Below are positions 3,080-23,949 of a stretch of 32,000 nucleotides of DNA, one piece after another (position 1 is the first letter of the stretch; every line of letters starts with the position of its first letter). Both the position numbers and the translations under genes were made by a program. The notes below the pieces were generated by a model. The model did no database searches and had not been told where the DNA came from. It worked only from the letters and a program-made list of their open reading frames with translations. The stretch comes from Byssovorax sp. (GTDB lineage: Bacteria > Myxococcota_A > Polyangia > Polyangiales > Polyangiaceae): NCBI GenBank assembly GCA_025362495.1, contig JANYGI010000126.1:1-32000 (forward strand), read 5' to 3'.

Positions 3080-3355
3080 AGGTGCCGCTCGGGGGGGCGT
3101 CGCTCGCTCGCCGCGAGCCGAGAAGCAGCTCGGCGCCGCGTTGCTCGCGCGAGGCTTGTCGCCGTGGCTCGGGGCCGTATCGCTCGCCGCGAGCCGAGGA
3201 GCAGCCCGGGGTCGCGTTGATCGCCGTGAACATGGCGCAGTTCGGGGGCATCGTCGGTCACCGCGTGCCGGGCGCAGCTCGCGGGGCGTCGTCGCTCGCC
3301 GCGAGCCGAGGAGCAGCTCGGCGCCGCGCCATCGCCCGCCGTGAGCCGAGCACGA
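3080..3355 (+). repeat. array A of a dispersed GC-rich tandem repeat (forward orientation)
   Basis: Several abutting degenerate ~36-40 bp units close to CGCTCGCCGCGAGCCGAGGAGCAGCTCGGSGCCGCGTCGT (hairpin CCGAG-N6-CTCGG), e.g. at about 3100-3140, 3178-3215 and 3285-3330. They alternate with GGCGCAGYTCGGGGGC-type units. A tail containing TCAAGCGAGATCCG follows at 3372-3385. Confidence 0.85.
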
Positions 3356-5452: not shown

Positions 5453-6766
5453 TCAAGGACTCGGAAGGCTCGATTCCAGCTCTTTCACGAGGGGGCTTTT
5501 CGGCGAGCGCTTGCGAATGTCATCGATAGCGGTGCGAGCTTCGGCAATGCGGCTAGCGCGGATCAAGGTTTGAATGCGCATCCTTTCGCAAGCGGCGGTG
5601 AAGTGTCCGCGAGGGTAGCTCTTGAAATAGTCTTGAATCGCCTTGAGTGTCGCCTCGGGCTTGGGGCTTTTGAACGCCACTCGAACGATATCGAATTGCA
5701 CAGCTTCGGCCGGAGTGACGTCACCGGCGGGCGCCGTCTCCGGTCTGGGTTCCGTGTTGCTCGACGCTGGCGGCTCCGGTGCGGCTCCGGTGCTGGTGGG
5801 CGCCACGTTCGCCACGAACACGAGAGGAACGCTCGCGACGCTTGCCGCAGGCGCCTCCTGCACAGTTGCGGCGCGCGCATTCCTGGCGAGCGCGTCAAGG
5901 AGGCGCTCGCCGCCGAGCGTTGCGAGGACGCCCCCAAAGAAGAAGATAGCCGGGCCGGCGATCGGATGAGCCACAAGGGCAGATCGGAGCGCTTGCACTG
6001 CGGATCGGCCGCCGTGCGGAGTTGCGGGCGCATCATGTGACGGTGCGTGGGGATCGGCGGGAGCCGCGCCATCCCCGATCGCCTGTGCGATCCTGGTCCA
6101 GTGGTGCTGCTTGAAATCTGCGGAAACTTCCGGGATCTCATGCGGCCCGTTGAGAAGCGAGAGCGCGCCGAAGGGCAGAATCAACGCGCCGGACTTGCGC
6201 CGCCGTTCCTGCTCCCGATTGTAGCCCTCGGTGAAGACGTGCATCGCCTGGTTGCGCAATCGATAGGCTTCGGAAAGAGCCATCTTGTGACGTTTGGCGA
6301 TGTCCTTCATCGGCTCGTTGTTCATGTCGTACGCGATCATGATTACGAGCGGGAGCGTGTCGATCGGCTCGAAGAATTGAACCGTGAACCGAGCTCGATC
6401 GTTGATCTCCATATAATCACCGCCGTTCGGGCTGCCGCTGGCACGATCGAAATCGTCGGCTAACGGCTCTTCACGTTCCCTGTTCAAACGTTGGCGCTCG
6501 CGGTAACGGCGCGCCACGTTGACGACGATTCCGTGCAACCATTGCTCGTGCGTTCCGAGCTCCGAATCGTAGGTGGGCCAGCGGCGCCAGGCATCCCGAT
6601 ACATCTCCTGGATCGCGTCGTCCCAATCGCGATCGGAGACCTTCAGCCGGTAAAGCCACAAGGTCGCCAGGCCGATCGTCGCGCGGTAGAGCTGCTCGAA
6701 CGTCTCGTAGGCGGAAGGGCCCGGGGGCTCAGACTGCGGCGGGGTTGTCGGGGCGCGTCGCCTCAT
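5453..6766 (-). CDS. ECF-type sigma-70 factor with long C-terminal extension containing a TM helix
   Basis: Region 2-like DAIQEMYRDAWRRW...WLHGIVVNVARRYRE. Region 4-like HTH PMKDIAKRHKMALSEAYRLRNQAMHVF. About 230 further residues follow, including the hydrophobic helix IAGPAIFFFGGVLATLGG and a C-terminal helical domain. Confidence 0.85.
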   Translation of the reverse strand: MRRRAPTTPPQSEPPGPSAYETFEQLYRATIGLATLWLYRLKVSDRDWDDAIQEMYRDAWRRWPTYDSELGTHEQWLHGIVVNVARRYRERQRLNREREEPLADDFDRASGSPNGGDYMEINDRARFTVQFFEPIDTLPLVIMIAYDMNNEPMKDIAKRHKMALSEAYRLRNQAMHVFTEGYNREQERRRKSGALILPFGALSLLNGPHEIPEVSADFKQHHWTRIAQAIGDGAAPADPHAPSHDAPATPHGGRSAVQALRSALVAHPIAGPAIFFFGGVLATLGGERLLDALARNARAATVQEAPAASVASVPLVFVANVAPTSTGAAPEPPASSNTEPRPETAPAGDVTPAEAVQFDIVRVAFKSPKPEATLKAIQDYFKSYPRGHFTAACERMRIQTLIRASRIAEARTAIDDIRKRSPKSPLVKELESSLPSP

Positions 6767-6887
6767 ATTTAGATCTTCCAGCGGGACGGGGCATTTTCCG
6801 AAGAAATCGACCGGCCGTGAAAATAGATCACGCGAGCGCCCGCGGCGGATCCGAGCGCGAGGGGCGGGCCGCTCACCGCGTCACCGG

Positions 6888-7105
6888 GCCGCGAGCCTAT
6901 CACGCGAGAACCGAGGAGCAGCTCGGGGCCGCGTCGTCGTCCCCGCGAGCCGAGGAGCAGCTCGGGGCCGTCGTCGTCGCGCGCCTGGCGCAGCTCCGGG
7001 CCGCGTCGTCGCTCGCCGCGATCGGGGAGCCGCTCGGGCGCGTCGTCGTCGCGCGCCGTGTGCCTGGCGCAGCTCGGGGGCGTCGTCGCTCGCCGCGAGC
7101 CGAGC
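6888..7105 (+). repeat. array B of the dispersed GC-rich tandem repeat (forward orientation)
   Basis: About six abutting units, e.g. CCGCGAGCCGAGGAGCAGCTCGGGGCCGTCGTCGTCGCG and CGCCTGGCGCAGCTCCGGGCCGCGTCGTCGCTCG. A tail with TCAAGCGAGATCCG at 7126-7139 matches the tail of array A. Confidence 0.85.
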
Positions 7106-11883: not shown

Positions 11884-12225
11884 TGGCTCCGAGCTGCTCC
11901 TCGGCTCGCGCGTGCGACGACGCGCCCGAGCTGAGGCAAGCTCGCGGCGAACGACGACGCGGCCCCGAGCTGCTCCTCGGCTCGCGGCGAGCGACGCCCG
12001 AAAAACTGCGCCAGGCGCGCGGTGAGCGACGTGGCCCCGAGCTGCTCCTCCGTTTGCGCGAGCGATGACGCTCTCGAGCTGCGGCCAGCTCGCGGCGAGC
12101 GTCGACGCCCCGAGCTACTCCTCGGCTCGCGGCGAGTTGGCCGCGTGCCGGGCTCCATTATTTTCGTGAAAAATGCGCCCCCGAGCTGCGGCAGGCTCGC
12201 GGCGGGCGACACGACGCGCCTTCCG
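11884..12225 (-). repeat. array D of the dispersed GC-rich repeat (inverted orientation)
   Basis: Units such as GGCCCCGAGCTGCTCCTCGGCTCGCGGCGAGCGACG are the exact reverse complement of the array A/B consensus. There are about 8 units. It lies immediately left of the cassette patch. Confidence 0.85.
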
Positions 12226-12433
12226 AACGGTGATTCAGGCAGACCTACCCGAAAACTTTGTAGAGGCGAGGAGCGGAGGAGCGATGCGGCGTCGCCTGGA
12301 GATTTCGGCGAAGTTTGTGCTTGCGGATCTGCGGCGATTGCCGGAGCATCCGGTGGGCTTGGGTCGGATACCTGGTCTGAATCGAGATCGGCAAATCTGT
12401 CGTTGGGCAGATACCGATCGTAGGGTGAATTCG

Positions 12434-13318
12434 ATGACATTCGAGAATTTTGACTTTTCGCTACTAGACGACCCCGAATTCAAGGAGGACTCGGTACGCG
12501 AGGAGATCATCGTGCCCATCCTCCGGCGGCTCGGCTACGCTGCATCTGGGCCAGCACGAATTGTTCGCAGCAAAGCCCTGATCCATCCGCTCGTCTACAT
12601 TGGCTCGAGACCCCATCCGGTTAACGTCGTCCCAGATTATCTTCTGATCGTCGGTGATGCACACAAGTGGATCTTGGATGCCAAGTCTCCCAAGGAATCC
12701 ATTTTATCGGGCAAGAATCCGGAGCAGGCCTTTAGCTATGCGATTCATCCCGAGGTTAGGGCATTTCGATATGCCCTCTGCAATGGGCGGCAACTTGCCG
12801 TCTTCGATGTTCAGAAGATCAACCCGCTGTTGGTGCTCGACGTGCAGCAGTTCGACGAAAAAATCGCCGCCGTAGAGCGCCTCCTGAGCCCGCTTGCATT
12901 CACGAAGCCGCACATTTTTGACTTCAAGCCAGATCTCGGGCTCTATCTTTTGAAAGCCGGGGCGCGCGTCGATTCCAGGATGCACTTTGTGGGCGTAGGT
13001 ATTCCTATGGTCGCCAAGGTTGAGGATGGTCGATACACTACTTTCATGACCGTAGGCGGCGAAGGCGACTTTTACGGCGTTTCCTTCGACTTTGATGACG
13101 ACAAGCTCCACCAACTGCTTGCCGCACTTGACGAGCAAAATCGGCTTAAGGCCTCTGAAGGATTGAAGCGTCAACCCTACAAGGTCTTCTTCGATATTCC
13201 CTCCGAGGTGTGCATCGAAGCTACGTTCGGCCAAGTTGTGCACGAGAATGAAGACGAAAGCTACTGTCCATTTGAAGCCGTTACATTCTCAAGGATCGAC
13301 GACAAGAGCACACCGTGA
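12434..13318 (+). CDS. PD-(D/E)xK nuclease, type I restriction HsdR N-terminal-like domain protein
   Basis: ATG at 12434, 26 nt after GTTGGGC. Motifs in order: EDSVREEIIVPILRRLGY, VPDYLL, WILDAKSP (D...D-x-K) and EQAFSYA (QxxxY), as in HSDR_N-type nucleases. The C-terminal ~150 aa were not recognised. Confidence 0.75.
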   Translation: MTFENFDFSLLDDPEFKEDSVREEIIVPILRRLGYAASGPARIVRSKALIHPLVYIGSRPHPVNVVPDYLLIVGDAHKWILDAKSPKESILSGKNPEQAFSYAIHPEVRAFRYALCNGRQLAVFDVQKINPLLVLDVQQFDEKIAAVERLLSPLAFTKPHIFDFKPDLGLYLLKAGARVDSRMHFVGVGIPMVAKVEDGRYTTFMTVGGEGDFYGVSFDFDDDKLHQLLAALDEQNRLKASEGLKRQPYKVFFDIPSEVCIEATFGQVVHENEDESYCPFEAVTFSRIDDKSTP

Positions 13319-13333
13319 AGCCAACGCAGGAAC

Positions 13334-13421
13334 TGCCCAACAAGCCGTTGCTGCCGACGGGGCGTCGAGCCTCGCTACGCTCGGCGCGGCGCCCCGCGGC
13401 AGAACGGTCGATCGTTGGGCA
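13334..13421 (+). other. attC-like recombination site 1
   Basis: It starts TGCCCAAC (RYYYAAC = GCCCAAC, 13335-13341), 16 nt after the stop. It ends GTTGGGCA (GTTRRRY, 13414-13420). The arms form an imperfect dyad: CTGCCCAAC..CGTTGCTGCCG.CGGGGCG versus the reverse complement CTGCCCAAC..CGTTCTGCCGCGGGGCG, with unpaired bases. Central hairpin GCGTCGAGC...GCTCGGCGC. Confidence 0.6.
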
Positions 13422-13457
13422 GGCGGGCCTCAACGAATTCGCGAGAAGGTGACAAAC

Positions 13458-14252
13458 ATGACTCGGCTTGAAAAGACTATCTCTGATGTGATCCCCAGGC
13501 GACTCAGAGCCTACGGCTGGGGTAAGCATCTTGAGGGATCGAAGTATGCGATCTACGACGTGCGCGGCCTGCATCTCGCGGCTGGGAACCTGCGATACAT
13601 TCTCAAGGACGAATCTGCGCGCTTATACTACCGAGGCCAGGCCGAGAGTTACCCCACCGGCATCGTTCCAAGTCTATACCGGGGCGCGCAGACGCTCGAA
13701 GAACGCATAGAACGCGACGAAAAAGTCGAGCGTGCAATCCGAACGATTAAGAGCAAAGCTAACTGGGACCCAAAGGGAACCGCAGGCCAAAGCGAGGCGC
13801 TCGCGCAGCACTACGGCATGCGAACGCGCTGGCTCGACGTTGTCGACCATCTACAGAGCGCAGCGTGGTTCGCGTATGACAGCGACAAGGCGCACGCCGA
13901 TGACGGCGTCGGGTACATCTATCTGATCGCGATATCGCGGGAGACTGCGCACGAGGTGGTCGACCTTCGTGAGCGTGGTTCAAACTGGATTCGCCCTCAC
14001 ATTCAACAAGGCTTCGGTATCGCGACTACAGCTCTTGCGCCGAACGTGAACGACTGTGTTGTTGCAACATTCGTGGTGCCACGAGTGCTCCTTCGCGCCG
14101 CTTCGGGATATGATTTCTACACGAGAGACACGTTTTTTCCACCTTCAGGGCAAGACCAGGGTAGGCACTACTGGATTCAGGCTGCCGACGCGCTTAGGTC
14201 TGAAGTATCAGAGGCAGACTTCAAGCTTCTTATCTGGAGCGACGGGCGGTGA
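13458..14252 (+). CDS. FRG domain-containing protein
   Basis: ATG at 13458 with GAGAAGGTGA upstream, 38 nt after the attC-1 core. LYYRGQAESYPTGIVPSLYRG and ALAQHYGMRTRWLDVVDHLQSAAWFA match the FRG-domain signature as I remember it ([FY]RGQ ... QHYG.pTR.LDw). Confidence 0.7.
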   Translation: MTRLEKTISDVIPRRLRAYGWGKHLEGSKYAIYDVRGLHLAAGNLRYILKDESARLYYRGQAESYPTGIVPSLYRGAQTLEERIERDEKVERAIRTIKSKANWDPKGTAGQSEALAQHYGMRTRWLDVVDHLQSAAWFAYDSDKAHADDGVGYIYLIAISRETAHEVVDLRERGSNWIRPHIQQGFGIATTALAPNVNDCVVATFVVPRVLLRAASGYDFYTRDTFFPPSGQDQGRHYWIQAADALRSEVSEADFKLLIWSDGR

Positions 14253-14284
14253 AACGTCATCGGCAGATCCGGATACCGCAACGC

Positions 14285-14372
14285 TGCCCAACAAGCCGCT
14301 GCATCGGACAGCGCGCCGAGCCTCGGAGCACTCGGCGCGTCCCTCCATGGGTAAGCGGCGCAGCGTTGGGTC
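14285..14372 (+). other. attC-like recombination site 2
   Basis: GCCCAAC at 14286-14292 (33 nt after the stop) ... GTTGGGT at 14365-14371. It has the same 88-nt length as site 1. It aligns to site 1 without gaps, with about two-thirds of positions identical by eye; the first 15 nt, CTGCCCAACAAGCCG, are identical. Central hairpin GCGCCGAG...CTCGGCGC. Arm symmetry is weaker than in site 1. Confidence 0.55.
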
Positions 14373-14536
14373 GACGGTCCCGGGTGGCAGTCCACGCTGA
14401 CGGTCCCGTGCACACAGTATCGGAGGCTGCCCGCGCTTCTGCAAGACAACTTGTGTACATGCGTCATATAACCAGGTCGTCCAACGATGCGACGCTAACT
14501 GCTTTTACCCCTCGCAATTGACTGACGGAGCAGTAG

Positions 14537-15088
14537 ATGCAAGCGACTAACATCGACGTTCGTCAGCCTGGCTCGGAGCCTGCTCCGACAACGGCGGACC
14601 AATTGACTGCCGAGCGCACGCAAGCGGTGACACCGAGTGGGCTCGCAGTAGGTTCGCCTAGTCTACCAGTATTCGCGCCCCGTCCGCCCCAGGAAGAACT
14701 CTATTGGAGGCAGTATGCGCTATTTGCGGATCTCCTAAAGAACTATATTGATTTGGTGATCAAGTTTAATACGTACTACTACACCGCCATCGCAGGGATC
14801 GTTGGGTTATTCGTAGCGATCAGTCCAGAAAAACGATTGTTGGCACGTTATTTTCTGCCGGTTCCCATACTCCTTAGTTTCATGTTTGCGGTGGTGTCTT
14901 TTTATGCATCGAAATCCACGAGAGCACTGCGATACGAAAATGAGAGGATAGGTCGCGCGCTCAGTCTCTCGGTAGTCCCGGACGTGTCCGTGTTGGCGTT
15001 CATGCTTTTGATATCTGGTGTTCTATTTGCATCCGTTGCTGTGGCGATTGTTGTTGGACTGGTGCTTTCACTGACCGCGAGGATCTAA
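14537..15088 (+). CDS. small integral membrane protein (183 aa, 3-4 TM)
   Basis: About 55-aa soluble N-terminus, then hydrophobic helices YYYTAIAGIVGLFVAI, YFLPVPILLSFMFAVVSFYA and VSVLAFMLLISGVLFASVAVAIVVGLVLSL. AT-richer codon usage. Confidence 0.7.
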   Translation: MQATNIDVRQPGSEPAPTTADQLTAERTQAVTPSGLAVGSPSLPVFAPRPPQEELYWRQYALFADLLKNYIDLVIKFNTYYYTAIAGIVGLFVAISPEKRLLARYFLPVPILLSFMFAVVSFYASKSTRALRYENERIGRALSLSVVPDVSVLAFMLLISGVLFASVAVAIVVGLVLSLTARI

Positions 15089-15546
15089 TGGGCCTTTTTC
15101 TGCCTCCTGTTTCGCTCGATCCAGAGTTCGTCGACAAACTGGCCGAGCATTCTGCGCGCACGACCATTGACCGCCTGCAGAGTCAAATCGACGGCGCGCT
15201 CAGCACCCAACTGCGCATGGCGCGCCGCATGGCGTTCGTACAAATAGTGTTGGGTAGCGGGGTGGCAATCGCGCTAGCTCTCGGCGGAATGCTTTTTGAT
15301 CGATTTCAACTTCCACGCGCCGGTGAGTTCCTGCGAACCGCAGGCGCTTTCCTTTTGGCGAGCTCAATCGCAGGAGGCATCACTGTATGGGCAATGGCGA
15401 TCTCTGCAAAACTTCAGGATCTTGTCAGTCGTGACGGCACTGCTGACCAAACGCGCGCGCCCTTGAGGGCTACATTTGACGGCGGTGCCGAGTCTCCCGC
15501 CAGCGCCGCCCAACCTGGCAAAGCAGCCGACGAATCCCAGGGCTAG
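15088..15546 (+). CDS. small membrane protein (152 aa, 2 TM)
   Basis: The start overlaps the upstream stop (TAATG at 15086-15090). Helices MAFVQIVLGSGVAIALALGGMLF and AGAFLLASSIAGGITVWAMAI. Confidence 0.7.
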   Translation: MGLFLPPVSLDPEFVDKLAEHSARTTIDRLQSQIDGALSTQLRMARRMAFVQIVLGSGVAIALALGGMLFDRFQLPRAGEFLRTAGAFLLASSIAGGITVWAMAISAKLQDLVSRDGTADQTRAPLRATFDGGAESPASAAQPGKAADESQG

Positions 15547-15573
15547 GCTGCGCCCAGCCCTGGGATTCGCAGC
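15547..15573 (+). terminator. stem-loop immediately after the stop codon (weak terminator candidate)
   Basis: GCTGCG-CCCA-gccc-TGGG-att-CGCAGC, followed by TGATTG. There is no clean T-tract. Confidence 0.3.
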
Positions 15574-15671
15574 TGATTGCCAACGTTATGTCGATTAGCT
15601 AGTAAGCGCAATAGTGTCTTTAAGTGTCGATTCGGGGTCGCAGTCTGGACGGGCCCGCTGTTCCGTTGAAC

Positions 15672-15820
15672 TCGGGCGGCGCCTACCGCGAGCAGCTCGC
15701 GACGCGCGACGACGCCTCGCGAGCTGCGCCACGCTCGCTGCAAGCGACGCGCCGCCGAGCTACGACAAGCTCGCCGCGAGCGACGACGCGGCCCCGAGCT
15801 GCGCCTCGGTTCACTCTATG
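15672..15820 (-). repeat. array E of the dispersed GC-rich repeat (inverted orientation)
   Basis: For example GACGACGCGGCCCCGAGCTGCGCCTCGG and CGCGAGCAGCTCGCGACGCGCGACGACG. It has the same orientation as array D and lies immediately right of the cassette patch. Confidence 0.75.
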
Positions 15821-17495
15821 CGCGCCGCTTGCCGCGCACGGGGATCGGCGTCGCTTCCTGGATCTCCACGCGGATCGGCGCCGCGTTGAGAAGTAGTGAC
15901 GCAACGGCGTCGCTCGTCTCTCCCGCCTCGCTTGGGGCTTCCTCCTCGCTCCCCTCATTCAGCGAAGGGAGCGCCCCACGCTCGAACGCAGCCGCGAGCG
16001 CGGACACGTCGCGCCAAACGATGCGCGGCCCGTCCTCCGGCGCGATCGTGATCCCCTCCACGAGCGCGATCACCGCCTCGCGGCGCTTCGGGACACTGAG
16101 CCCTTCCCACGCCCCGGCCACCAGGGTGACGAACGCGAGCGCCCCGCGCCGGCTCGCTACGGTGTCGCCCGTCGCGTCCGCAGATTGCTCCGCTTCGGTC
16201 GCGTCAAGATCGGACAGCTCCCGATCCAGCTTTTCGACTTCCTTCCCCACGTCGTCCACGCTCATCAGCCCACGAGAAACCAGGGAAACGACCCGCTCGC
16301 GAGCTTCCTTGATCTTCGCCCGCTTGTCCCCGTGGTCTGGAGCGATCCGCCGCGGAGAGGGCGGCGGACGCATCAGGGAGGCTCCTAGAGACTTGAGGTG
16401 TTTAAGCGTCGCTCGTTCCACGATCTTGTCGGTTTCCGCCTGGCGCAGATAAGGCGCCTCGGAGCATCGGATCTTGTCTTCACCAGGGGTGAGGCGCTTG
16501 CGGCAGACGTAATATCCCGCGTGCTTGAGGCGAGAGGTTTTCGACGTCGCCGTAGCGCAACAGGTGGTTCCGCAGATCGAGCAGCGGGCGAGCCCACGAA
16601 TCAACCAACCTTGCGTGCTCGAGCCCATGTGAACGTTCGCGCCATGATTGCGCCGACTGACAAGCGCCCTTTGCGCAAGGGACCATTGATCGAAGGTCAC
16701 GATCGGCTCGTGCGCGTCGACCCATTGCGCCGGAAGTTGCGCCGTTGTTCGCCGATTGCCCGGCCGTACAGGGGTGAGGGCCAGTTGCCCGGTGTAGATG
16801 CGATTTTTCAGCGCAATCAAGACCCACGATCGGCCGAACGCCGCGACGCCCTTGTAGCGCGATCGTAGATAAGCGCTGATCTCCAGAACGCTTTCCCCGT
16901 TGATGCAACGCTCGAACATGTCGCGCACGGCGGCAGCACGCACCGGATCGATCTCCAGGCGGCGCGGCTTGTCGGAGTTGTCTCGACCCTTCACGCGGAG
17001 GTACCCGAGCGGAGGAAGCCCCTCGACAAACTTCCCCTGCCCGCGGAGCCGCTTCCGATTGCCCTCGGTTCGCTCCTTGATCCGCGCGCGCTCCATCTGC
17101 GCGATCGACGCCCACATCGCCATCTGCGTCTCCCCCTCGGGGGTGCTCGCGTCGAAGCGTTCGGCGAGCGAGAGGAAGCGCGCGCCACGTCGAAGGATCT
17201 CGCGCACGGCGGAGAACGTGAAGACGATGTCGCGCGAGAAGCGATCCAGCTTCGAGACGATCACGAGGTCGCCCGGCCGCACCATCTTCAGCAGGCGCGC
17301 GATCTCGGTTCGCTTCTCCTGCGACTCGGCGCTCGCCGACTCGACCTCGATGAAGTCGATCGGAACAGGGAGCCGCGAGATCGCGGCGTAGCGTTGCAGC
17401 TCGTCGAGCTGACTGTCGAGCGACGTCCCCGCGCCGCCCTGCTCCGACGTCGAAACTCGTCGGTACCCGAGCACTCTTCGCGCTGTCTCTTGCAT
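15816..17495 (-). CDS. large serine recombinase (site-specific integrase)
   Basis: N-terminal resolvase catalytic domain (GYRRVSTSEQ, SKLDRFSRD), a recombinase domain, a Cys-rich zinc ribbon (CSICGTTC...YYVCRKR...IRC) and a coiled-coil C-terminus. 559 aa. Confidence 0.9.
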   Translation of the reverse strand: MQETARRVLGYRRVSTSEQGGAGTSLDSQLDELQRYAAISRLPVPIDFIEVESASAESQEKRTEIARLLKMVRPGDLVIVSKLDRFSRDIVFTFSAVREILRRGARFLSLAERFDASTPEGETQMAMWASIAQMERARIKERTEGNRKRLRGQGKFVEGLPPLGYLRVKGRDNSDKPRRLEIDPVRAAAVRDMFERCINGESVLEISAYLRSRYKGVAAFGRSWVLIALKNRIYTGQLALTPVRPGNRRTTAQLPAQWVDAHEPIVTFDQWSLAQRALVSRRNHGANVHMGSSTQGWLIRGLARCSICGTTCCATATSKTSRLKHAGYYVCRKRLTPGEDKIRCSEAPYLRQAETDKIVERATLKHLKSLGASLMRPPPSPRRIAPDHGDKRAKIKEARERVVSLVSRGLMSVDDVGKEVEKLDRELSDLDATEAEQSADATGDTVASRRGALAFVTLVAGAWEGLSVPKRREAVIALVEGITIAPEDGPRIVWRDVSALAAAFERGALPSLNEGSEEEAPSEAGETSDAVASLLLNAAPIRVEIQEATPIPVRGKRRA

Positions 17496-22806: not shown

Positions 22807-23949
22807 ATGTTCGAGCCCCGCTACAGCCTCACGCCTCGCGTCGTCACCGCCCTCATGGCGGTCGAGGCGTCGCGGCAGATCGTCGCGTCGCTGCCGCTCA
22901 CGACGACGATGCTCGACTCGCTGCGGCGCACGGCGCGGCTGCTCGCCACCCACTATTCCACGCAGATCGAGGGCAATCAGCTCTCTCCGGCCCAGGTGGA
23001 GGTCGTCCTCGATCAGGGCGGCGCGTTCCCCGGCCGCGAGCGCGACGAGGCCGAGGTCCGGCACTACTTCGCCGCGCTCGAGCACGTCGAGCGCCTCGGG
23101 CGCGGCGGCGGGCACGTCATCGAGAAGGACGTGCGGACGATCCATGGTCTGGTGATGACCGGCAAGGCCCGCGCGACACCCTACCGCGACGGGCAGAACG
23201 TGATCCGCGACAGCAGGTCTCACCGCATCGTCTACATGCCTCCCGAGGCGAAGGACGTCACCGGTTTGATGCGCGAGCTCGTCGCCTGGGTCAACGCGTC
23301 GATCGGAGCGCGCGAGCTCCCGGTGCCGGTGATCGCGGCCTGCGCGCACCATCAGCTCGCGACGATTCACCCGTACTTCGATGGCAACGGGCGGACGGCG
23401 CGGCTCCTGACGACGATGATCCTGCACCGGAGCGGCTACGCGCTGAACGGCATCTACTCGCTGGAAGAGTATTATGCTGGCAACCTGGACGGGTATTACT
23501 CCGGGCTCTCCGTGGGCAAGAGCCACAACTACTATCTCGGCCGGATCGAGGCGGACATCACGTCGTTCATCGAGTATTTCTGCGCGGGGATGGCCGACGC
23601 GTTCGCGAAGGTGCGGCTCGCCGCCGAGGAGGCGAGCCGGCAAAGCACCCTCGACCAGACCCCGGCGCTGCGCGACCTGATACCGCAGCAGCGACAATCA
23701 CTCGGCCTGTTCCTGCGGCTCCGGGTGATCACCGCGAAGGATCTTGCCGCCTATTTCAGCTCCACTCCTCGGCAAGCCGCCGCGCTCTGCGGGAGGTGGG
23801 TGGAGTCCGGGTTCCTGGTCATCGAGGACCCCTCGACGAAGACCCGCAGTTACCGGCTCGCCGCAGCCCACGAGTCGCTGGTGGCGAAGCAAGCAGAGCG
23901 CGTCACCGCGCCCACGCGGAGCGAGACGCCGAGGCGGAAGGCCCGGTGA
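22807..23949 (+). CDS. fic: Fic family protein (AMPylase-type) with C-terminal winged-helix-like region
   Basis: Canonical Fic motif HPYFDGNGRTARLL. N-terminal Fic_N-like region (HYSTQIEGNQLS). 380 aa. Confidence 0.9.
   Translation: MFEPRYSLTPRVVTALMAVEASRQIVASLPLTTTMLDSLRRTARLLATHYSTQIEGNQLSPAQVEVVLDQGGAFPGRERDEAEVRHYFAALEHVERLGRGGGHVIEKDVRTIHGLVMTGKARATPYRDGQNVIRDSRSHRIVYMPPEAKDVTGLMRELVAWVNASIGARELPVPVIAACAHHQLATIHPYFDGNGRTARLLTTMILHRSGYALNGIYSLEEYYAGNLDGYYSGLSVGKSHNYYLGRIEADITSFIEYFCAGMADAFAKVRLAAEEASRQSTLDQTPALRDLIPQQRQSLGLFLRLRVITAKDLAAYFSSTPRQAAALCGRWVESGFLVIEDPSTKTRSYRLAAAHESLVAKQAERVTAPTRSETPRRKAR

Follow-up and report, generated by a model that had tools for sequence, protein, structure and literature searches.

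The stretch of DNA analysed here, positions 1 to 32,000 of contig JANYGI010000126.1 from the Polyangiaceae bacterium Byssovorax sp. (hereafter the window), carries between positions 12403 and 15585 a block of three integron-type gene cassettes, each consisting of a gene unit followed by an attC recombination site and all of them laid out on the forward strand. The first two cassettes, which encode open reading frame 1 (ORF1) and the FRG-domain protein ORF2, are the main subject of this study. In the reading that we favour, with slightly better than even confidence, the block is devoid of integrase and carries a stand-alone nuclease of the HsdR N-terminal (HsdR-N) type, fused to a domain resembling the oligonucleotide/oligosaccharide-binding (OB) fold, together with an FRG effector resembling the ADP-ribosyltransferases (ART).

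The cassette array and its attC family

The 97-nt direct repeat found after each ORF resolves into the 86-nt imperfect palindromes listed in Table 1. The gap from the stop codon to the attC is 16 nt in unit 1 and 33 nt in unit 2, while in unit 3 the stop codon lies within attC3. R''/R' boxes bound all three sites, those of attC1 and attC2 fitting RYYYAAC/GTTRRRY, the end boxes of integron attC sites; in the terminal attC3 the R'' and both L boxes agree with the family and the R' box, GTTATGT instead of GTTGGGC, departs from it right after the G/TT crossover point (the slash marks the point of exchange). Folded as single-stranded DNA, attC1-3 are more stable than their shuffled counterparts (z −2.5 to −6), and the bottom strand shows single-base bulges on the R''-L'' (3') arm, as in canonical attC sites.

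Table 1. Coordinates of the features described in the text (window positions)
Feature	Position	Strand	Details
Orphan R' core site GTTGGGC	12402..12408	+	Left array junction, G/TT at 12402/12403
Cassette 1 (1012 bp, one gene)	12403..13414	+	Limits are the G/TT of the orphan core and of attC1
ORF1, stand-alone HsdR-N-type PD-(D/E)xK nuclease with C-terminal OB-like domain (predicted)	12434..13318	+	294 aa, ATG to stop
ORF1, nuclease domain (predicted)	12434..12853	+	Residues 1-140; E23, D68, D82-x-K84, Q98xxxY102
ORF1 motif E23	12500-12502	+	
ORF1 motif P67-D68-Y69	12632-12640	+	
ORF1 motif I80-L81-D82-A83-K84	12671-12685	+	
ORF1 motif Q98-A-F-S-Y102	12725-12739	+	
ORF1, C-terminal five-stranded barrel, predicted SSB-like OB fold	12977..13294	+	Residues 182-287; AF2 and Foldseek
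attC1, GCCCAAC...GTTGGGC	13335..13420	+	86 nt; fold −33 to −40 kcal/mol, z −4 to −5; in family alignment
Cassette 2 (951 bp, one gene)	13415..14365	+	Limits are the G/TT of attC1 and of attC2
ORF2, FRG-domain protein	13458..14252	+	264 aa; GAAGGTG Shine-Dalgarno sequence upstream
ORF2, Pfam FRG domain	13620-13895	+	Residues 55-146
attC2, GCCCAAC...GTTGGGT	14286..14371	+	86 nt; fold and family alignment
Cassette 3 (1220 bp, two overlapping membrane-protein genes)	14366..15585	+	Genes 14537-15088 and 15088-15546
attC3, GCCCAAC...GTTATGT	15508..15591	+	84 nt, terminal site; right array junction
PD-T4-10 two-gene anti-phage system (PADLOC)	1414-2876	−	2418-2876 PD-T4-10_A, E=1.6e-29; 1414-2421 PD-T4-10_B, E=9.8e-32
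GC-rich tandem-repeat blocks	3093-3350, 6886-7102, 11885-12210, 15706-15812		Units of 36-37 or 73 nt, dyad CCGAG..CTCGG
Large serine recombinase	15816..17495	−	Pfam Resolvase, Recombinase and Zn_ribbon_recom; weak XisF/Ccr similarity (NCBIfam)

Public metagenomes were searched for the attC family with a pattern made of the R''-L'' part and CGTTGGG, and the same attC type was found in 82 metagenomic stretches, mostly from Joint Genome Institute records. Covariation was evaluated on 74 distinct copies; the R-box stem is fixed by the pattern and therefore carries no weight, while the 3' side of the inner stem had been left unconstrained. In this set 94.3% of the cells pair, versus at most 45.7% when the partners are slid, and 119 cells are compensatory versus 32±7.5 in shuffles (none of the 500 reached as high a value), eight pairs presenting double changes. 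Five of the metagenomic loci (L103, L118, L121, L140 and L147) encode, within a few kb of such sites, homologues of the integron integrase IntI that are 43-51% identical over about 315 amino acids to a Vibrio IntI, with 2-3 attCs nearby. The sites of the window hence belong to a genuine attC family that soil integrons use, and the cassette form that the first-pass annotation ascribed to both genes is borne out by three attCs of one family, with a covarying hairpin and IntI-linked relatives elsewhere. As to gene order, intI is co-directional with the attC array in L121, L140 and L147; the classical divergent layout was seen only in L103.

At its left end the array has an orphan core site, CGTTGGGCAG at 12398-12409, that agrees with the 3' consensus of the attC family and has no matching R'' box upstream. 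Both array ends fall exactly at the G/TT crossover, which suggests an IntI-mediated insertion in which the three cassettes would have entered as one block at a secondary GTT site; the predicted empty site would be GGCAAATCTGTCG joined directly to TTATGTCGATTAGC. No tyrosine-recombinase box II signature of an integron integrase is present in any frame of the window, Pfam detects no tyrosine-recombinase domain in the about 20 long window ORFs scanned, and the sole recombinase is of the serine type. Since the window holds no integrase, the array fits a cluster of attC sites lacking integrase (CALIN). It resembles CALINs and secondary-site cassettes in having attCs without intI and both ends at the crossover point, whereas its secondary-site origin is deduced from sequence and an integrase may lie elsewhere on the 181.8-kb contig. 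A scan of the whole window against Rfam gave no family at the gathering score, and no curated attC or RNA model was matched. The anatomy of an integrase-less array in a myxobacterium, and its link to an IntI-associated soil attC family, are new.

The nuclease, its C-terminal domain and its distribution

ORF1 is identical to a database protein and is preceded by the Shine-Dalgarno-like sequence AGGGTG; in both ORF1 and ORF2 such a sequence lies 6-8 nt 5' of the start. The family comprises 1,316 proteins at E≤1e-3, nearly all of 285-300 amino acids, often named 'type I restriction enzyme HsdR N-terminal domain-containing protein', so that the HsdR-N annotation of the family is in itself not new. 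The ordered motif set E...PDY...ILDAK...QxxxY, announced by the first-pass annotation, is present in ORF1 and constitutes the conserved core of the family. In an alignment of 34 sequences the residues K17-E18-D19, R22-E23, P67-D68-Y69, A83-K84, Q98, Y102, H105, R109 and C116-N117-G118 are invariant, and D82 is kept in at least 90% of the sequences. The Pfam family HSDR_N (PF04313) is matched by 23 of the 34 relatives at E≤0.01 (best 3.3e-9), and ORF1 is assigned to HSDR_N because its relatives match, by transitivity at the family level. The QxxxY motif is shared with the RecB family, and its double mutation abolishes DNA cleavage by the HsdR subunit of EcoR124I (PMC2475608).

The AlphaFold2 (AF2) model of ORF1 has a mean predicted local distance difference test (pLDDT) score of 92.9 and shows an alpha/beta domain (residues 1-140), a helical linker (141-181) and a barrel (182-287). 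When the N-terminal domain was searched with Foldseek, a Vibrio vulnificus HsdR fragment (3H1T) was recovered over 139 columns with modest significance (E=1.3e-3). In the viral structure library BFVD the model matches single-stranded DNA-binding proteins (SSBs), DUF3127 proteins and a PD-(D/E)XK nuclease. Sequence and profile searches of the Protein Data Bank (PDB) with the nuclease gave chance-level matches only, to proteasome and Bet5 proteins. The profile check of the nuclease assignment was thus favourable at the level of the relatives and of the fold; a Pfam match of ORF1 itself was not obtained.

The likeness to type I HsdR resides in the PD-(D/E)xK core, with the D, the (D/E)xK and the RecB-type QxxxY in identical order. 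ORF1 differs from HsdR in that the superfamily 2 helicase motor is missing, no HsdM or HsdS accompanies it, and it carries an OB-like C-terminal domain that HsdR lacks. In agreement with what had been noticed at first, the 294-residue protein contains no helicase domain and the cassettes hold no methylase or specificity gene; neither is such a gene a conserved neighbour in the 80 homologue loci described below. One 412-residue member of the family, P0004 from Anaerovirgula multivorans (locus L017), has its N-terminal nuclease segment duplicated and gives a weak RmuC-family match.

The C-terminal part of about 150 residues had been called unrecognised, and indeed it has no match in Pfam, NCBIfam or PHROG; structure prediction, on the other hand, gives it an SSB-like OB fold. 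According to DSSP the modelled domain has strands at residues 182-197, 200-209, 212-220, 250-265 and 280-287, and helices at 222-243 separate strand 3 from strand 4. The 18 best PDB matches of the domain in Foldseek are all SSB OB folds (E from 2.6e-4, TM-score 0.5-0.6 on the target, probability 0.99-1.00). Five strands with helices between the third and the fourth is the arrangement of bacterial, mitochondrial and phage SSBs, from which the predicted domain differs in having no detectable sequence similarity, in being fused to a nuclease and in that no SSB-type C-terminal tail was identified in it.

A search of 1.84 billion proteins with a profile that runs from residue 150 to the C-terminus, and so takes in linker and barrel, retrieved 683 cluster representatives. 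Most of them share the ORF1 architecture; the domain was also found as a stand-alone protein of about 127 residues, as a tandem duplication, fused to Sel1 repeats, and at the N-terminus of proteins of 280-430 residues, where the 100-300 residues after it match nothing in Pfam. Judged from these sequences, it is an independent, shuffled domain family not recorded in Pfam. Its modelled OB/SSB-like fold and its modularity are new, and its characterization could open several related systems. The alternative forms are represented by P0332, P0349, P0368, P0373, P0392, P0393, P0410, P0418 and P0434.

The distribution of the nuclease was followed in 185,579 species-representative genomes, where 285 matches were confirmed to encode a relative and the 80 best were analysed. 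These 80 homologues, 37-60% identical to ORF1, are spread across phyla (Proteobacteria, Cyanobacteria, Bacteroidota, Bacillota, Planctomycetota, Acidobacteriota, Chloroflexota, Verrucomicrobiota and others). Clustering of all the ORFs within 4 kb of them disclosed no conserved partner gene, the largest cluster covering five loci, and with no conserved neighbours among the 80 loci a conserved housekeeping context, which would have spoken against a role in conflict, is excluded. Defence or mobile genes make up a minority of the neighbours: they encode group II intron reverse transcriptases, NucC-like and MADS proteins, DUF433/DUF5615 toxin-antitoxin pairs and, in four enterobacteria, YgjP and the HsdR of a type I restriction-modification (R-M) system. 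Among 5,426 complete Escherichia coli genomes only strain A41 (NZ_CP028735.1, 749111-774003) has the gene, split and disrupted, in an integrase island at a tRNA-Leu that adjoins a complete type I R-M operon (hsdRMS). Within that island the nuclease stands between a TopAI/YjhQ toxin-antitoxin pair and the R-M operon with its SprT/YgjP metalloprotease. The gene was found on five of 72,556 plasmids, as weak or rare matches, and neither the nuclease nor the FRG protein has a match in phage genomes. The nuclease is hence a rare, horizontally mobile, stand-alone accessory gene.

Detection of attCs by regular expression and folding was positive at only about 4 of the 80 loci, which indicates that cassettes are not the main vehicle of the nuclease family; a second, stricter heuristic was dropped, as it missed even attC3. 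Vibrio sp. SCSIO 43132 has the homologue as a typical cassette of a complete integron, with attCs like the Vibrio cholerae repeats on both sides and a divergent IntI a few kb away. A 62%-identical homologue on a metagenomic contig of 36% GC (L082, 1-8284) belongs to a co-directional array, beside Maf and the STAND NTPase nSTAND3. Four gene units of this array each have on their 5' side an almost identical intergenic element of 96 nt, which was considered as an attC and rejected, since it looks more like a repeated promoter or intergenic module.

The FRG protein

The ORF of cassette 2 opens mechanically at 13236; the true start is at 13458, and the product is identical to a database protein. 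The FRG-domain assignment stands, with Pfam FRG (PF08867) matched at E=3.6e-12 and 47.4 bits against a cut-off of 25. Eleven PADLOC models of PDC-S15 also match ORF2 (best E=1.6e-11), so that the protein, presented at first as a new candidate, belongs to a group already catalogued as such. FRG, described at first as a family of no established function, is not without a proposed one: Frg has been assigned to the ART superfamily and predicted to be an NADase effector of prokaryotic immunity (PMC9503650).

The AF2 model of ORF2 (pLDDT 92.8) is consistent with that assignment. Its 12 best PDB matches in Foldseek are all ADP-ribosyltransferases, including cholera toxin A1, Arr, EcPltA, pertussis S1 and the CARDS toxin, with typhoid toxin and PltC lower in the list. 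The statistics are weak, only cholera toxin A1 reaching E=1e-3 and the TM-scores being 0.2-0.45; they agree with the published ART assignment (PMC9503650). ORF2 has in common with the FRG/PDC-S15 proteins the Pfam domain above its gathering cut-off and the PDC-S15 models, and its predicted fold bears a weak resemblance to those of cholera toxin A1, Arr, PltA and pertussis S1; it belongs to a distinct subfamily of 260-300 amino acids with its own invariant set and no characterized member. The search gave no more than 45 relatives in this subfamily, all with PF08867, and they keep Y/F-R59-G60-Q61, R75, E113, Q117-H118-Y119-G120, T123, D127, D130, A135, W137-F138-A139, S175, R179-P180-H181 and Q183 invariant.

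On at least 24 contigs a relative 37% identical to ORF2 is encoded within BREX operons, with the gene of the PglX methyltransferase on one side and that of PglZ on the other, a location that is new, and another relative lies 5' of a gene for an Mrr_cat nuclease, with an IS110 alongside. The attC type of the window also accompanies the two homologues closest to ORF2, at 66% and 60% identity, which implies that this FRG lineage travels as a cassette. Among the 72,556 plasmids the FRG protein had three weak or rare matches. Association with defence islands, which had been suggested as a check for both families, is clear for the BREX-embedded FRG relatives; for the nuclease it is suggestive and concerns a minority of the loci.

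Candidate functions and the surrounding island

The premise that integron cassettes are a reservoir of anti-phage genes is published: they carry phage-resistance genes (BRiCs), among them a validated putative restriction endonuclease, Brc142 (bioRxiv 10.1101/2024.07.02.601719). The cassettes of the window resemble BRiCs and the defence cassettes of chromosomal integrons in being compact, mostly single-gene units, each followed by its attC. They differ in that HsdR-N and FRG are not mentioned in that work (bioRxiv 10.1101/2024.07.02.601719) and in that they lie, with no integrase, in a Polyangiales chromosome and are known from sequence alone. Both the concept of cassette-borne defence and FRG as a candidate are therefore already known.

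For both genes we infer catalytic activities, triggers and a role against phages or other mobile genetic elements. ORF1 would be a Mg-dependent endonuclease of the RecB/HsdR type working with neither motor nor methylase. Its OB domain would bind single-stranded or structured DNA, or drive an SSB-like oligomerization, and might thereby target or license the cutting of invading or replicating foreign DNA. ORF2 would have the ART fold and, on infection, would use up NAD+ or modify a target by ADP-ribosylation, as an effector of the abortive-infection type. A two-gene system was rejected in view of the separate attCs and of the fact that the FRG and nuclease genes never co-occur at other loci; each gene is a separate module of its own. 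That they act in defence is plausible, and the case is stronger for the FRG protein, whose relatives are embedded in BREX operons and lie beside Mrr_cat. We give even chances to FRG as an anti-phage effector and somewhat lower ones to the nuclease as an effector against phages or plasmids. A bolder version, which we deem unlikely, makes the HsdR-N/OB protein an immune nuclease of a new, one-protein kind, in which a mobile SSB-like sensor licenses the RecB-type nuclease; the sensor would then recognize single-stranded or structured DNA of invaders, for instance phage replication intermediates or incoming conjugative or transforming strands, and the C-terminal domain would be a reusable trigger module across several unrecognized conflict systems.

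Several points weigh against the reading of the block as an integrase-less array with an OB-fused nuclease and an ART-like effector. ORF1 itself matches no Pfam family at E≤0.1, nor any NCBIfam or PHROG family, and its PADLOC match, to the N-terminal nuclease end of a type IIG restriction endonuclease, is weak (E=0.006). The Foldseek E-values are modest, 1e-3 to 1e-4, with target-normalized TM-scores up to about 0.5-0.6. In the FRG protein the catalytic residues could not be matched to the R-S-E triad, R59 being invariant in the Y-R-G-Q strand, and PDC-S15 is described as a still uncharacterized candidate (PMC12482510). The literature search gave no experimental paper on FRG, and no experiment for either family. 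The immediate neighbours of the nuclease homologues, 144 in number, span 141 Pfam families including metabolic and housekeeping genes, and few of them are defence genes. The pool of cassettes with attCs of this family is made up largely of unknowns, toxin-antitoxin genes, SUKH-1 immunity proteins and assorted enzymes, and among 44 cassette ORFs from it only three PADLOC families were matched, with one ORF each. Since defence matches are so rare in the pool, the step from cassette to defence is a weak one, and cassette location alone is weak evidence of a defence function. Promoter and terminator sites are no commoner than expected by chance and, with neither integrase nor recognizable promoter, expression of the cassettes is uncertain. 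Finally, neither the nuclease nor the putative NADase is accompanied by a visible regulator or antitoxin, which leaves self-toxicity without an evident means of control.

Among the alternatives, the one that survives best has the nuclease as a mobile DNA-processing factor with no immune role, acting on single-stranded intermediates in repair, recombination or the maintenance of mobile elements. An SSB-like domain joined to a RecB-type nuclease would suit such intermediates, the neighbourhoods of the 80 homologues, with their 141 Pfam families, metabolic and regulatory ones included, and few PADLOC matches, are in keeping with it, and the cassettes with attCs of this family mostly carry genes other than defence genes. 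However, a processing factor accords poorly with the very sporadic occurrence of the gene (1 of 5426 E. coli genomes, 5 of 72,556 plasmids, no phage), with the scattering of 40-55% identical sequences over phyla with no conserved repair-gene neighbourhood, and with the copies that adjoin R-M, MADS, NucC-like and STAND genes, and we deem it unlikely.

In enzymes such as PvuRts1I and AbaSI an N-terminal nuclease is joined to a C-terminal barrel reader within about 300 amino acids. ORF1 would be comparable to them if it were a modification-dependent, type IV-like restriction enzyme in which the barrel reads a modified base or a special feature of double-stranded DNA, self DNA being unmodified and spared. 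A single chain that joins a nuclease to a beta-barrel, with no methylase, would be organized in this manner; the enterobacterial homologues adjoin type I R-M operons in an integrase-bearing island, and NCBI annotates the E. coli remnant as 'restriction endonuclease'. The best fold matches in both structure libraries are nevertheless SSB-type OB folds, with no SRA- or PUA-like readers among them, and ORF1 matches no PADLOC type IV model, which makes this explanation improbable.

A comparably low probability is attached to the FRG protein being an ADP-ribosylating toxin of inter-bacterial conflict, or part of an addiction module, and not an anti-phage effector. While its best fold matches are secreted ADP-ribosylating toxins, and SUKH-1 immunity proteins and toxin-antitoxin genes occur in the cassette pool, ORF2 has no secretion or delivery domain (Pfam finds the FRG domain only) and no immunity gene adjoins it in the 951-bp cassette; its relatives, moreover, lie in BREX operons and next to an Mrr-type nuclease, and PADLOC lists the family as a phage-defence candidate. 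That the cassettes are silent, stranded cargo, unexpressed, decaying and with no current function in the host, as the missing intI in the window, the promoter signal no higher than chance and the disrupted E. coli A41 homologue might suggest, is very doubtful, given that all four ORFs are intact with Shine-Dalgarno-like sequences, family-invariant residues are kept, and an identical segment was independently assembled from run SRR23617177.

Should either the OB-fused nuclease or the ART-like FRG protein protect against phages or plasmids, a very compact single-gene system (0.8-0.9 kb) would be added to the defence catalogue, and integrons as defence libraries, so far a matter of Vibrio and of mobile integrons from the clinic, would be known from soil and from Myxococcota as well. 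The NADase/ART activity of FRG has stood as a computational prediction for ten years and could be decided by biochemistry, and the nuclease family, with more than 1,300 proteins in at least a dozen phyla, is as yet unstudied. Even if both genes prove negative, the locus would be a clean case of secondary-site cassette insertion.

The cassettes are part of a larger mosaic. GC content is 0.56-0.59 at 12-15 kb, where the cassettes lie, versus 0.66-0.72 in the right-hand core, and the GC of the codon positions splits likewise at about 17.5 kb. The left 17.5 kb form an island of lower-GC modules with GC-rich tandem repeats between them. The repeat blocks, two in each orientation, stand at module borders and bracket the cassette array, with only weak copies in the core; they are candidates for elements like the repetitive extragenic palindromes, for recombination sites or for something else. 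The serine recombinase, outside the cassettes, lies where the low-GC island meets the high-GC core and may have served as integrase for the island in its entirety. About 10 kb from the cassettes, in a segment of GC 0.56, the island carries the anti-phage system PD-T4-10 (Table 1), adjoined by a 349-residue ORF (234-1283) with no match in any library.

Minor observations concern the remaining genes. The two genes of cassette 3 encode 183 and 152 amino acids with an ATGA-type overlap and have sub-threshold Pfam matches to 8xMP (26.8 bits, cut-off 30) and DUF7649; a literature search on 8xMP gave no relevant paper. Within the island, 5453-6766 of the reverse strand encodes a protein of 437 amino acids whose only match is to sigma-70 region 2. 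The core encodes a methionine aminopeptidase, whose named relatives come from Polyangium, Chondromyces and Minicystis at about 70% identity and thereby place the host among the uncultured Polyangiales (Myxococcota), and, at 22807-23949 of the forward strand, a Fic/DOC-domain protein adjoining a DnaE-type polymerase.

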